From a virus, in the IMG/VR virus record IMGVR_UViG_3300050013_000065, positions 1 to 64,000 of that record: a DNA stretch of 64,000 nucleotides; one strand, given 5' to 3'. The translations under genes were made by a program, and so were the position numbers. The notes below the pieces were generated by a model. That model had not been told where the DNA came from, ran no database searches, and saw nothing but the letters and a program-made list of their open reading frames with translations. Below are positions 51,822-56,494 of the stretch, piece after piece; positions within the stretch are counted from its first letter, which is position 1; every line of letters begins with the position of its first letter.

Positions 51822-54800
51822 TTACGATGACGACGTTTCTGACTGCAAACGCTGCTTGTTGCGTCCATTATCTGGACGGGTCGATCATTTCTGTCGGCCT
51901 CATACGGTTTCGTTTTCCGTATGGTCGGACTGTTGCATACTCTTTCGAGTCTTCTTCGCTCAGTCTCTCACGGTCTCTTTCGAGTTCCGCCTCGTCACCA
52001 TTTCAGGGTTCGAGTCAATCAGAAGAAGTTTAGGCTCCGCCGCTGCTTTAACGGAGTGTCATCGTGCTTCCCGGCACATGTTACTCATTCTAAACATCTT
52101 AGAACGGAGTAGATCGTTTCCGTCTACTTCATACGGTTTTTGTTTCCCGTATGCTCGGACTATTGCATGTCCATTATCTGGACCCGCTTCGCTTAGTCTC
52201 TCAGCCTGCTTTCGCTTGGCCCTCCTTGGCATTTCAGCGTCGGAGTCAATCAGAAGTGGTTTATACTGCGCCCGTATGTTAACGCAGTGTGTTGGTGTAG
52301 CGCACATTGTAAGAAACCCATCCGCCAATTTGGCGAGCTGGATCGCTCACGCTTCCCTGCTCAGGAGCACTCTGAATAAACAGCTTATAGTTCTTCGAGC
52401 CGTCATTCGGGTTCTTCCCGCGTATGTTACTCATTCTAAACATCTTAGAACGGAGTAGATCGTTTCCGTCTACTTCATGCAGTTACTATTTCTGCATGTC
52501 CAGACTATTGCATCGTCCATTATCTGGACGCCACTTCGCTTAGTCGTTCACGGTCTCTTTCGAGTTCCGCCTCGTCACCATTTCAGGGTTCGAGTCAATC
52601 AGAAGTGGTTTTCCTACGCAGATTACGCTGCGAGGTCCCCGGAGTTAAGGAACACAGAGAAGATAGCATCGTCGCCGAAAATGTAACTATTGTAATACGT
52701 ATTGCCTGAAATAGTCACAGTGGGGGCAGTGGATGTCTGTTTGAAAGTAACACCCGCGAACGAGATGGTATCCTCATTCTTAGGCAGTTCAAACAGCATG
52801 TTGCGCATCTCGTCGCTTCTCTTGATGATGTCCGACAATCCGTTGAAGGAGGTGTCGTTCAAAACATCTCTGACAACATTAGGTAATTTTGTTAATCGGA
52901 GTTTTTACTTCCATCCGTGGTGTTCCGAGATTAGAACGCAGGGTGTTGCCTCGTTCAATAAATCCCCGGTCTCCCATGGGTGACCCACTCCGTACAGGTC
53001 AGTCACCTGATCTGTTTTCTTACAGTCGCCTGTAAGTTCGGACTCTATCTTCGCCGTCCATTTTTCGGACGGGTCCGGCGTATTAGTCTCTACGGGTTTG
53101 CCTTTGCGATTCAATTCTTTACAAAGAGAAATAATCTCATCTCTGCGCTCCATGCTTCCGAATCTATTCAGTTGCACATATTCTAACAACAGAGCCGCTT
53201 GTCTTTGTTTTATCTTCAGATGAGGTATTATGCCCTTCAACAGAACTTCTTTGCTTTCGTTTCCGAGAGCAACCCAGGTCCATTGGTTCTTCCACTTTTT
53301 CTTAGCCATAGGTCTGAAATAAACGGTACCCCCAAATTTCTCCAATAACCAATCTAGAGGTTCTTTGGTGGTAAGACTCATGGATATTCGGGAGTCCCGG
53401 TGTATGTAGGGCTTTCCCTTTGTGGATATAGAACGACCGCGAGATTTTGTTTTGTGAGACGTGGCCGCTATGTGGCCTTCTCCGTCTATTAGTCCCGCTG
53501 CGTACGCAAAATCTACTTCTGAAATAATTGAATCAGGCATCTTCCCTCGGTATTGTCTGGAATTTCACTACAACAAGTCTATCACAAACGACAGAAATTG
53601 TCAACCAGAGATTCACCGATTTAGCCAGATTTTATATCCACCCTATATACGGCTTACGCCGCTTGGTGATAGTTTTGATAATGGATAATTCCACCAAATT
53701 TGTTGTCCACGAGAGGACGAGCGTTGACGCTTACCAGCGACTGAGCAGCAGACCGGATGTTATTCGCGGTCAGATACGAGCCGTTCGCAAGCTGGATGTT
53801 GACCAAGCTATCGACCGCAACAGCCGAGTCAGCGGTAAGCTGGACCAAGGAGTTGAGGGTGAGGGCTAGGCGGTAGTTTAGTTCGTTCCTTTTTGTTACC
53901 GTCCAGATAACGGGCGGGGCTGGTCATTTCTGCCAGCCTCTATACATCGCTGCATAGAGCGGACTATCGCATCACCCCGAAGGGCGTCCTCTTGTTTAGT
54001 CTCTACTGCTGCCCAGCCGAAGCCTGCTTGCAGTCTGTTGTCTCCTTGCGGAGAGTTCCAGCTTAATTAAAGAGGATTTATACTGGCCCATTGGGTTAAG
54101 CCAGATTCTGCAATAAACCCGGGTCATCTATCGCGACATCCAACGCTAGGTCAGATGAATTGATGAAGTCGGCATATTGCCCGCAATGTGTTTAGGCAAC
54201 CAACATCACTGTTGGTGCGCTCTCGCAGTCGCCTACGAGGTCAGACTCTATCATCTGTCCGTTATCCGGACAGGCAACCGTATTAGTCGTTAGGGATATT
54301 CCGCGATGATTTAGTACTCGAAATTTTTTGATAACTTCTCGGGTCTCATCATCAGAAAGATTTCTTCGGTTTCGAAACCAGTCAAGTAGGAGAATAGCTT
54401 GCTCTCGTTTAGTAACCATATAAGGCAAAATAGCTAAGAGAGTAGTTTCCAAGAATCGGGTCGGTAGTACCCAATTTCCTAGTTCACGATGTTCTCTTTT
54501 GGAAGAGCTTACGCTGCCGCCAAACTTTTCAAGAAGGAAATCGAACACTCTCATGTCCGTATTGGGAAGCTGAATCTTGGGGTCGAAAGAACGTTTTGAT
54601 TCATACAAACTCAAAGTTCCTTCGGCGTCTAAAATTCCGGCTAAATATTGATAGTCGTCCTTGCTCGCTGTAACTTCTTCTACATCTCTGTGCATTCTTT
54701 TTACTGGCTCAAAAAATCCGTTCCTAAAAGAAACGTAATCAGACAGTTCTTTTCTAGCATCAGAATTGTGGTAGCTTCTCCCCCCCAATCCAATAAATTG

Positions 54801-56494
54801 AACTATCGTTTCTCCTTGTCTCCGTTTCAACTTCAGAAGAGGGGAAACCATTTTCAATAGATTAAGTTGGTGTTCAGAATTACTCACATACCAATGATGA
54901 TTTGGTTTACGATTTGGACGCTTATCCTGTGTCGTGTAAAATTGTCCTCCGAAAGTATCGGATAGCCATTTTACCGTAGGCAGGTGCGTGGTCGCTACTT
55001 CTACCGTTGCATCATAGTTAATGTAGTTTTGTTCGTGCGGGTGGACTGCTATTCCCAAAGAACCATCGCCGTCTATTAAACCGGCTAGGTAGTTCCATCT
55101 TGCGGGGCTTATTTTTGTCTTATCTTTCAAACGGGTTTCCTCGGTATTGTCTACTCCAACTACTATACTACTACACCAAGTAGTATTTTGTCAAGCAGAT
55201 GTTCACCGATTTAGGCTGCTTTTTCGACCACCGATATATTCATGGTCGCTACGATCTTGTTGCTGGACTCGCTGATGGGCGATCCAACGGTTCCCTCAGC
55301 AGCCTGATTTAGGTTTGCTGCGAGCAGAGCGTAGGTGAAGACTTTTGTGTTTAGGCCGTCAGTATCTCTACTGGGGCGCTCTCATCGTCGCCGATGAGAA
55401 CAGGCTGTATCTTCGGTAGGTTGAGATAACGAATTACATCGCACAACTTCTTGCGGAGTTCCCTATTCGGAGAACTAGGAAGACGAACAAGCTCCAAAGC
55501 GATCTTGGCTTGCGGTCTCTTGATTCTTAGGTAGGGAAGAACTTGGAGGAGGAATTGTTCCCGCCTTTCTTTTCCCGTCAACTCCCAAGTATAAAACTCC
55601 TCGGTGTTGTCGTGGGCCTTTGTCGTATGAAACCAACCTCCGTAGAGATCGAGAAACATTTGGACAAGGGGGCGGTAGTTGTTTCCCATCCGAATTCGTA
55701 GCATCGGTTTATTGTCTGGGGTGAAGGCGGCAGATACGCAACCTTCTCCGTCCATAATTCCGGCTATATACGCATGTGTTAGTTTATCTTCAACTTTTCC
55801 GTCTAGCGTCTCAGTCGTTAGGCATTCCCTGTTCTTCATTCCGCGAATCGTTTCCATAAGCTCTTGGCGTCTGGAAGGATTCTGTGCGTCTCCCAAGCTA
55901 TAGAACTCCTGAAGTACGAGAGCCTCAGCTTTTTTGATGCGAAGATACGGAAGAATGTATGAGAGGAATTCGGGGGCAAACTTTTTGCCGTTGAGGTTCC
56001 ACTGGTACCAAACCTGCCCTTTCTTAGGGGTGTGTTTGGTAAAGAAGCCACCGAAAGTTCTAACCAGCCATTTGACTATCGGCAGATTAGTATTACTCAA
56101 AACAATGCGTGGTTGGTAGTTGGTGCAGGGGCCGTTCGGTTTAACTGTTGGTTTGTAAATCGAAAAGCAACCCTCGGCGTCCATCAGTCCGGCTACGTAT
56201 GCTTTTGTTCGTTCTCTCATAGGGTCTTTGCTCGGTATTGTCTAGTTGACAAGATAAGAATACCACACCAGCATTCTATTGTCAATAGGGTTCCACCGAT
56301 ATAGCTAGATTTTAATTCAGCACTATTCAATACTGAATCTGGTTTCCCTGACGGAGCGGCAGCGGACGCTGCTTCGTCATGCTAAGGAAGGGTGTTTGTG
56401 CCTTCAGGTTAGGAATTGCTTCACGTTCATAGTGAATAGCTACGAGGTTGGGCAAAGCGCCCGAAGTCACAATTGATGCAGGTGAGTAACTCAT
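51822..56494 (-). CDS. major capsid protein, N4-gp56-like, 327 aa, 8 exons: 56494-56332, 55341-55242, 54183-54099, 53887-53681, 52883-52648, 52420-52282, 52074-52051, 51851-51822
   Basis: exons sum to 984 nt with no internal stop; motifs LP..GNQIQF, EG, ATIGQYAD, AIDDP, IIHP....D, AGV.F, IFG.DA, DP.RQ.G.WV.Y; AAAGGAG RBS; directly downstream of the scaffold gene. Confidence 0.92.
51852..52050 (-). mobile_element. group I intron 7 (199 nt, ORF-less)
   Basis: P1 CTCCGT/GCGGAG; in-frame TAA start; compensated P7 GACTG/CAGTC; ends in G. Confidence 0.88.
52075..52281 (-). mobile_element. group I intron 6 (207 nt, ORF-less)
   Basis: P1 ACTGCGT/GCGCAGT; in-frame TAA start; GAGACTA and AATAGTCC; ends in G. 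Confidence 0.88.
52421..52647 (-). mobile_element. group I intron 5 (227 nt, ORF-less)
   Basis: P1 GTTCCT/GGGGAC; ACGACTA and AATAGTCT; ends in G; restores CT+C codon. Confidence 0.88.
52884..53680 (-). mobile_element. group I intron 4 (797 nt) with LAGLIDADG ORF; terminal nucleotide A
   Basis: P1 ATCCAT/GTGGAT; P10 TAGG/CCTA; GAGACTA and AAGATAGAGTCC. Confidence 0.85.
52905..53540 (-). CDS. single-motif LAGLIDADG homing endonuclease (intron 4)
   Basis: YAAGLIDGEG; FGG, IPHLKIK..QA. Confidence 0.92.
   Translation of the reverse strand: MPDSIISEVDFAYAAGLIDGEGHIAATSHKTKSRGRSISTKGKPYIHRDSRISMSLTTKEPLDWLLEKFGGTVYFRPMAKKKWKNQWTWVALGNESKEVLLKGIIPHLKIKQRQAALLLEYVQLNRFGSMERRDEIISLCKELNRKGKPVETNTPDPSEKWTAKIESELTGDCKKTDQVTDLYGVGHPWETGDLLNEATPCVLISEHHGWK
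53888..54098 (-). mobile_element. group I intron 3 (211 nt, ORF-less)
   Basis: P1 CTGGCT/GGCCAG; starts with in-frame TAA; GAGACTA and GATAGTCC; ends in G. Confidence 0.88.
54184..55241 (-). mobile_element. group I intron 2 (1058 nt) with LAGLIDADG ORF
   Basis: P1 CGACCAT/GTGGTCG; P3 GCAGCC/GGTTGC; ACGACTA and GATAGAGTCT; ends in G. Confidence 0.9.
54192..55130 (-). CDS. double-motif LAGLIDADG homing endonuclease (intron 2)
   Basis: YLAGLIDGDG and YLAGILDAEG. Confidence 0.93.
   Translation of the reverse strand: MKDKTKISPARWNYLAGLIDGDGSLGIAVHPHEQNYINYDATVEVATTHLPTVKWLSDTFGGQFYTTQDKRPNRKPNHHWYVSNSEHQLNLLKMVSPLLKLKRRQGETIVQFIGLGGRSYHNSDARKELSDYVSFRNGFFEPVKRMHRDVEEVTASKDDYQYLAGILDAEGTLSLYESKRSFDPKIQLPNTDMRVFDFLLEKFGGSVSSSKREHRELGNWVLPTRFLETTLLAILPYMVTKREQAILLLDWFRNRRNLSDDETREVIKKFRVLNHRGISLTTNTVACPDNGQMIESDLVGDCESAPTVMLVA
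55342..56331 (-). mobile_element. group I intron 1 (990 nt) with LAGLIDADG ORF
   Basis: P1 ATTCAGT/GCTGAAT with U.G; P3 TCTAGC/GCTAGA; ACGACTG and AAGATACAGCC core strands; ends in G. Confidence 0.9.
55351..56220 (-). CDS. double-motif LAGLIDADG homing endonuclease (intron 1)
   Basis: YVAGLMDAEG and YIAGIMDGEG; LPYLRIK twice. Confidence 0.93.
   Translation of the reverse strand: MRERTKAYVAGLMDAEGCFSIYKPTVKPNGPCTNYQPRIVLSNTNLPIVKWLVRTFGGFFTKHTPKKGQVWYQWNLNGKKFAPEFLSYILPYLRIKKAEALVLQEFYSLGDAQNPSRRQELMETIRGMKNRECLTTETLDGKVEDKLTHAYIAGIMDGEGCVSAAFTPDNKPMLRIRMGNNYRPLVQMFLDLYGGWFHTTKAHDNTEEFYTWELTGKERREQFLLQVLPYLRIKRPQAKIALELVRLPSSPNRELRKKLCDVIRYLNLPKIQPVLIGDDESAPVEILTA

Follow-up and report, generated by a model that had tools for sequence, protein, structure and literature searches.

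Evidence for a homing-endonuclease gene interleaved with the core of a group I intron in the major capsid gene of a peat phage

Intron 1 of the capsid gene and its reading frame

We analyzed a stretch of 64,000 nucleotides (nt), hereafter the window, which corresponds to positions 1 to 64,000 of the IMG/VR virus record IMGVR_UViG_3300050013_000065, and focused on intron 1 of its major capsid gene. The complete record is 75.5 kb long, with a completeness estimate of 70%, and recurs in metagenomes from peat and permafrost. The capsid gene runs on the minus strand from 56494 onwards, interrupted by several group I introns. The first of them contains a single open reading frame (ORF) for a homing endonuclease with two LAGLIDADG motifs, and the reading we defend here, with a probability of about 0.9, is that of a mobile group I intron in which one endonuclease gene is interleaved with the ribozyme, one nuclease domain being placed in the loop of the paired segment P6 (L6) and the other in the loop of P8 (L8). 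A blastn search of the region against 50,697 phage records returned no match. The features on which the argument is built are:

56332..56494, minus strand: exon 1 of the capsid gene, encoding MSYSPAS...QGNQIQ and the first base of the next codon
55342..56331, minus strand: group I intron 1 (990 nt), beginning with the base that follows the P1 U.G pair and ending with the terminal G
55242..55341, minus strand: exon 2 of the capsid gene, which completes the F codon and then reads FTYALLAANLNQ...IVAT
55351..56220, minus strand: homing-endonuclease ORF, 289 amino acids plus stop, two LAGLIDADG motifs (Pfam PF00961)
55831..56220, minus strand: domain 1, residues 1 to ~130, in the P6 loop, bounded by the two covarying P6 strands
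55430..55783, minus strand: domain 2, residues ~147-264, in the P8 loop, bounded by the P8 strands; it contains no conserved RNA motif

The 5' splice site follows the U (56332) of the U.G pair in P1, and the terminal G is located at 55342. Removal of the 990 nt leaves an uninterrupted capsid reading frame, the same that is read in more than 40 related phage contigs with no intron at this site, where the predicted ligated exons appear as ...LRQGNQIQF[FY]TYALLAAN.... Moreover, in metatranscriptome contigs of two studies 55341 is joined directly to 56332, leaving out exactly the length of the intron, and RNA contigs also show the joint to intron 2 at the end of exon 2 (55242). The DNA run that is probably the source of the record holds no joint between 55341 and 56332, and run X17 holds intron-bearing contigs only. 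The span 55342-56331 proposed in an earlier note, made from the sequence alone, was recovered on the minus strand, with a P1 U.G pair, a terminal G and intron-less alleles.

The ORF matches Pfam PF00961 at E = 2e-8, and its two motifs, YVAGLMDAEG (residues 8-17) and YIAGIMDGEG (residues 151-160), lie in two inserts of 390 nt in the P6 loop and 354 nt in the P8 loop. Its ATG, at 56220, lies one base 3' of the P6 5' strand, which places the start after the P4/P6 strand, with domain 1 first, as had been claimed; in several relatives the GTG start is itself paired. From there the frame crosses nine core strands, and about 130 nt of the catalytic core are translated, partly within the gene and partly at its end: the linker between the domains is encoded by P6'-J6/7-P7-P3'-P8, and the C-terminal tail by P8'-J8/7-P7'-P9-P9.1. 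The linker predicted at 55824-55802 is indeed in frame, as the 23-nt string translates to CLTTETL and ends with two bases, the first ones, of the D codon; also as predicted, domain 2, J8/7-P7' and P9 are followed by a stop codon (55353-55351) a few nucleotides, namely 8, before the terminal G. The strands of the ribozyme are the following:

56315..56338, minus strand: P1, with the exon-intron strand ATTCAGT (56338-56332) and the guide GCTGAAT (56321-56315)
56304..56309, minus strand: P3 5' strand TCTAGC; the strand exists in five sequence versions among the 14 threaded introns and is paired 6/6 with its partner in every one
56232..56299, minus strand: P4 TCGGTG (56299-56294), P5 extension and P4' TACCGA (56237-56232), from the core fold and the covariation alignment
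56221..56231, minus strand: P6 5' strand, GC then CCCT, ending one base before the ORF ATG
55802..55830, minus strand: P6' (55830-55827, 55823-55822), J6/7, P7 5' strand GACTG (55816-55812) and P3' GCTAGA (55807-55802), translated N-R-E-CLTTETL-D
55784..55801, minus strand: P8 5' strand CGG, GTTGA, GATAA, translated D-GKVEDK, with 3/3 basal pairs compensatory
55414..55429, minus strand: P8 3' strand TTATC, TCAAC, CCG, translated R-YLNLP
55403..55413, minus strand: J8/7 AAGATA and P7' CAGCC, translated KIQP, with a synonymous-difference fraction of 0.07
55360..55399, minus strand: P9 hairpin (55399-55380, GCGA loop) and P9.1 hairpin (55373-55360, GAGA loop), translated VLIGDDESAPVEIL

P8 is a three-part stem (CGG/CCG, GTTGA/TCAAC, GATAA/TTATC) made of the 18 nt that follow P3' and the 16 nt that precede J8/7. 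The two strands of P3, TCTAGC (56309-56304) and GCTAGA (55807-55802), are exact complements. On a single sequence this match is weak evidence, as a scan of the 990-nt intron finds another hexamer that pairs 6/6 with P3 (counting G.U) and 20 more at 5/6; it is the comparative data that lift P3 far above chance. When both domains were swapped in silico for GAAA loops, the resulting 276-nt RNA had an unconstrained minimum free energy (MFE) of -78.3 kcal/mol, and its MFE structure holds P1, P3, P4, P5, P6, the whole of P8, P9 and P9.1, with pair probabilities of 0.71-1.00. Only P7 is missing from it, P7 being a pseudoknot and hence beyond what the folding algorithm can draw.

Covariation across orthologs and distant threaded introns

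A scan of viral contigs yielded 12 loci that carry this intron at the identical position and whose ORFs show 68-98% identity, and an alignment of nine distinct copies (A1) was built from them. In it, 93.4% of the helix cells pair, against 31-41% when the partners are slid by 1-3 columns, and compensatory changes are found in P6, basal P8 (C-G to U-A), P8b, P9 and P9.1. P1 is paired in eight of the nine orthologs, in addition to being part of the MFE structure of the core. The outer part of P8 (GATAA/TTATC) has no fixed register across orthologs, helix 8 being paired in 79% of the cells, and each intron forms an extended P8 duplex individually. One ortholog (L016:2941-3861) lacks nearly all of the P5 extension, of which a 5-bp hairpin (TCTGA/TCAGA) is left, and another locus (L011:2826-2897) has about 65 extra nt in the P1 loop; the periphery of the intron is plastic and its core frozen.

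A further scan, carried out with the capsid exon, gave 80 more loci. Six of them (L024, L028, L029, L033, L085 and L096) show the order P4', motif 1, P7, motif 2, J8/7, with ORFs only 35-39% identical to that of the window, and lie at capsid sites different from that of intron 1 (after AIH, NLKA and SMT). Together, 14 threaded introns, with ORFs 35-83% identical to the window ORF, were placed in alignment A3, where 97.6% of the core cells pair (27-44% in the slid controls) and 20 of 33 pairs show changes on both sides. Compensatory pairs are found in P3 (5/6) and basal P8 (3/3), both of which are 100% paired, and also in P9 (5/6) and P9.1 (5/5); the second basal pair of P6 changes from C-G to G-C in 6 of the 14 introns. 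The distant P3 strands CTGTTC, TCCGAC, CCTTGC and CTTGGC each find an exact match in the hexamer that follows the P7 motif in their own linker. Each P3 pairs 6/6 with its own P3' in 14/14 introns, while non-self partners reach a mean of 3.2 and a maximum of 5. Likewise, the P8 strands around domain 2 pair at -13.4 kcal/mol with self and at -5.3 kcal/mol with non-self strands, and self-pairing is stronger than with every cross-group partner in 13 of the 14 introns. The covariation thus bears out TCTAGC/GCTAGA as P3/P3', the assignment made in the earlier note. Because these helices covary across the 14 threaded introns, we regard as settled, on comparative sequence grounds, that P6', P7 and P3' lie in the inter-domain linker and that domain 2 lies in the P8 loop.

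Nucleotide-level constraint in the translated core

The fraction of synonymous differences, counted over codon pairs that specify the same residue in the orthologs, is about 0.5 in the bulk of the ORF, falling to 0.08 at CLTTETLD (codons 133-140) and to 0.07-0.18 at codons 269-288. In domain 2 it is ordinary (0.31-0.64). Similarly, the Nei-Gojobori synonymous divergence (dS) falls from about 1.6 in each of the domains to 0.51 in the linker and 0.31 in the tail, while the ratio of nonsynonymous to synonymous divergence (dN/dS) of the two domains is 0.05 and 0.08. Residues T135, T136 and T138 are invariant even in proteins just 35% identical to that of the window. Because dS drops in linker and tail, with dN/dS values this low in the domains, both domains are working protein under strong purifying selection, and linker and tail are subject to an additional, nucleotide-level constraint. 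With the covariation of P3, P6 and P8, the loss of synonymous variation in the same stretch and the fold of the domain-deleted RNA, the earlier proposal that the core strand serves as a linker between an L6 and an L8 insertion holds.

An arrangement that would refute this proposal, with both domains in one loop as in intron 2, the true P7-P3' elsewhere and the linker motif a protein motif only, was looked for. Intron 2 (55241..54184) and the introns at L038, L045, L050 and L054 do carry both domains upstream of P7, and the window sequence offers a second candidate for the P7-P3' strands, GGCTG followed by GTTAGA at 56069-56059, inside domain 1. This candidate is nevertheless unconserved, the hexamer being GTGGAA, GTGTCC, GTCGAA or GTTGAA in the orthologs, and downstream of domain 2 no P3' candidate with an adjoining P7 strand was found. 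The P3' of the linker, on the other hand, changes in step with P3 (five versions), and its synonymous sites are frozen. The one-loop arrangement is already contradicted by the alignments, and we hold it to be very improbable.

The layout could also be that of a twintron: an outer intron bearing domain 1, whose P8 was invaded by a second intron bearing domain 2. The capsid gene is crowded with paralogous introns, and a P4'-like 12-mer with one mismatch lies within domain 2, at 55611-55600. However, the 354 nt between the P8 strands are one open frame, in which synonymous variation is ordinary and conserved RNA elements are absent, a single ORF spans the entire region, and no second core was found by Rfam in 55783-55430. 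As for the 12-mer (GACAACACCGAG; 55600-55611, minus strand), it matches 11 of the 12 positions of the invariant P4' 12-mer of the family and could pair perfectly with P4, but it varies in the orthologs, which break the pairing, and was rejected as a chance occurrence. We consider a twintron the least probable of the alternatives, with hardly any weight left to it.

Points that weigh against the threaded layout

Several observations speak against a gene interleaved with a functional ribozyme. Intron 1 itself reaches no threshold for the Rfam family RF00028, with no match even at E up to 10. Applied to the window as a whole, Rfam returned nothing at gathering scores; with the limit relaxed to E = 10, it recovered no more than the 3' halves of two other introns. 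The core of intron 1 is probably masked from the covariance model by the inserts of 390 and 354 nt. These capsid genes also contain ORF-less introns of the family to which intron 1 belongs, whose scores against RF00028 are 50-65 bits (gathering score 50), one of them reaching 63.5 bits. In the Rfam alignment of L006:3967-4132, GUAACGACU..AC and the next seven bases, GCCAAAU, are aligned to J6/7-P7-P3', and AUGAUAUAGUC to J8/7-P7'. Introns like intron 1 are, then, missed by covariance-model scans.

In addition, the RNA contigs that carry the joint mismatch the exons of the window (in one of them, at 9 of 94 bases in exon 2) and may be transcripts of intron-less relatives rather than spliced products. 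Because the exons of these contigs differ from those of the window, the 990-nt skip is consistent with splicing and is neither decisive nor a proof of it. P7, as the earlier note had pointed out, has one A.C mismatch in the window copy (GACTG, 55816-55812, with CAGCC, 55407-55403). This is a local deviation, since five of the nine orthologs carry CAGTC at P7', which pairs perfectly. P3, P4 and P7 are invariant among the close orthologs, and it is solely in the more distant threaded introns, located elsewhere in the capsid gene, that they covary. Finally, the start region of the ORF in the window copy has only a weak match to a Shine-Dalgarno sequence (GAG).

The predicted endonuclease

An AlphaFold model computed on the alignment of the 14 sequences (predicted template modelling score 0.83) shows two full LAGLIDADG domains, similar to I-CreI, as an alpha-beta-beta-alpha-beta-beta-alpha domain pair packed via the motif helices. 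The predicted local distance difference test falls below 50 only at residues 132-136 and 270-289, and the model has no secondary structure at residues 130-145 or 268-289; the low-confidence residues are exactly the RNA-encoded linker and tail. The best relatives by sequence in the PDB are the homodimeric I-MsoI, I-CvuI and I-CreI, the top match being an engineered single-chain I-MsoI (3fd2, E = 8e-23), and the matches also include I-AniI and the bI3 maturase. By fold (Foldseek), the best matches are single-chain I-CreI (3mxa) and I-MsoI, with TM scores of 0.72-0.74. A large protein database held 39 relatives, all of them metagenome proteins. Because the closest PDB relatives are the I-CreI/I-MsoI family and its single-chain forms, the gene in effect encodes a natural single-chain enzyme of the I-CreI type with the ribozyme core as its linker.

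The metal-binding acidic residue is present in both motifs of the window protein (DAEG and DGEG) and is conserved in 13 of 14 relatives. Motif 2 of L024:2625-3476 reads FFDGKG, a K replacing this residue, and on the basis of that substitution the L024 protein may act as a nickase or may have only one active site left.

The layout could be as described and the element an immobile relic, with an inactive endonuclease or one acting mainly as a maturase that aids the folding of the split ribozyme. Some LAGLIDADG proteins are maturases, one of which is among the PDB matches together with I-AniI, one relative, L024, has K instead of the acidic residue of motif 2, and a ribozyme with two inserts of this size might need help to fold. 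Nevertheless, both acidic residues are intact in the window protein, dN/dS is 0.05-0.08 in both domains, and the occupation of at least four capsid sites, with patchy presence in close relatives, is as expected for an active homing element. We therefore regard a relic or a maturase as unlikely, though less so than the other alternatives, and retain the mobile, threaded intron as the preferred reading.

Origin, spread and sister introns

Within the first 55 codons of the capsid gene, threaded introns occupy at least four sites (following AIH, NLKA, SMT and QIQ), and they are patchily present among close relatives. One contig can hold several family members, and the site of L085 lies 3 nt from that of L028. 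Separate phylogenies of the two domains had been suggested as a check, and in a tree of 49 domains the threaded domains 1 group in one clade (support 98) and the threaded domains 2 in a second (95), the inner topology of the two being identical. Because the domains group in this way, the threaded layout arose once, before its spread across capsid sites, and is old rather than a recent event in intron 1.

The halves of the intron 1 protein are 37% identical to each other. An approximately unbiased test did not reject the union of threaded domains 1 and 2 in one clade (p = 0.57), and in the tree threaded domain 2 falls in a polytomy with single-motif domains and with the domains of ORFs that have two domains in L6. 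From these sequences, a duplication of domain 1 and a fusion with another single-motif gene cannot be told apart as the source of domain 2. Among 100 loci, no family member with a single domain in L8 only was found.

Many introns, all belonging to one sequence family, interrupt the capsid gene across 51822-56494 of the window (minus strand). Besides intron 1, these include:

55241..54184, minus strand: intron 2, 1058 nt, with two LAGLIDADG domains, both in L6; RNA contigs show its joint
54098..53888, minus strand: intron 3, 211 nt, ORF-less; RNA contigs show joints at the first two introns of this list
~53690..53020, minus strand: a fourth, single-motif intron, with its single domain in L6; the Rfam alignment gives the 3' end 53020

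Three layouts of one intron family, threaded, two-in-L6 and one-in-L6, hence stand side by side in the same gene. As in intron 1, intron 2 and the single-motif intron have GACAATACCGAG at P4' and AACGACU at P7, and the tail of their ORF reads through P7, P3', P8, P7' and P9; unlike in intron 1, all of their nuclease domains precede P7. The distance from P7 to J8/7 is 36 nt in these two introns, with a short P8 hairpin, and 405 nt in intron 1. The hairpins (54255-54271 and 53056-53075 of the window, minus strand; TGTCCG-GATAA-CGGACA and similar) stand where intron 1 has domain 2.

The single-motif ORF of the fourth intron (52905-53540 of the window, minus strand) extends about 115 nt beyond the 3' end aligned by Rfam, and the RNA joint of this intron, from 52883 to 53691, carries 10 unmatched letters; its 3' boundary is ambiguous. 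In L054:2821-3765, which has a two-in-L6 ORF, the linker HLTTDT, which recalls the TTxT motif encoded by P7, was considered as a decayed duplicate of P7, a candidate that we rejected as too weak (about 10 of 14 bases match, and L050 lacks it). The true P7 of L054 (IPTTNV) comes after domain 2.

Proposed mechanism and significance

The frame passes from the P6 loop, encoding domain 1, through P6', J6/7, P7, P3' and the 5' strand of P8, read as a flexible linker of about 16 residues, into the P8 loop, encoding domain 2; after it, the frame continues through P8', J8/7, P7', P9 and P9.1, yielding a disordered tail of 20 residues. In the scheme that we propose, the protein would cut intron-less capsid alleles and thereby drive homing. 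A ribosome crossing the ORF would have to unwind P6, P7, P3, P8 and P9, and any one RNA molecule would then be either folded for splicing or under translation. Because of this unwinding of core helices, mutual exclusion of translation and splicing is a reasonable inference.

We further suggest, tentatively and with more doubt than confidence, that the use of the core as a linker turned a homodimeric enzyme with a near-palindromic target into a single chain whose halves evolve independently, allowing retargeting to at least four capsid sites, while the threading locked nuclease and ribozyme together and coupled their expression. If this were the case, neither the nuclease nor the ribozyme could be lost or moved alone. 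The arrangement, which is old, under selection and mobile, provides a natural route from homodimeric to monomeric LAGLIDADG enzymes. It also serves as a natural test case of one sequence that meets the constraints of an RNA fold and of a protein, the RNA-constrained codons sitting in disordered peptide, and, for phage late genes, as an extreme example in which to study how translation conflicts with splicing.

Comparison with known systems

In most descriptions, the ORF of a group I intron occupies a single peripheral loop, and in some cases its ends creep into the core. That ORFs overlap the core of mobile group I introns is already known; the placement of one domain in each of two loops is well supported here by comparative data, and no published account of such an ORF, in which the core links two LAGLIDADG domains lodged in separate loops, was found in the open-access literature.

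The core creep described by Edgell, Chalamcharla and Belfort (2011; PMC3073962), in which the end of an ORF is extended by loss of a stop codon or by an earlier start, had been mentioned in the earlier note as established. It fits the C-terminal tail, but not the P6'-P7-P3'-P8 segment, which lies between two complete domains.

In the Synechococcus 23S rRNA intron L1917, a single-motif LAGLIDADG ORF starts in P6 and stops in P9 (Haugen et al. 2007, PMC1995217; Table 1 of PMC3073962). As in intron 1, that ORF runs in frame through P7, P3 and P8, and its core nucleotides are dual-coding. The Synechococcus intron has, however, one nuclease domain, located in P8, and its core encodes just N- and C-terminal extensions, whereas intron 1 has a complete second nuclease domain in P6, which makes of the core an internal linker between folded domains.

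In the td intron of phage T4, the ORF of I-TevI lies in the P6 loop and its 3' end supplies nucleotides of P6a and P7, an overlap proposed to set translation against splicing and the nearest tested precedent (PMC3073962). I-TevI differs from the enzyme of intron 1 in being a GIY-YIG enzyme, and its gene overlaps the core by 20 nt at one end only.

At the level of the protein, the engineered single-chain forms of I-CreI and I-MsoI (3mxa, 3mx9 and 3fd2) resemble the intron 1 enzyme, as both consist of two subunits of the I-CreI family joined by a flexible linker. While in 3mxa, 3mx9 and 3fd2 the linker is a laboratory design, in intron 1 it is natural, its sequence dictated by the P6'-P7-P3'-P8 strands of the ribozyme.

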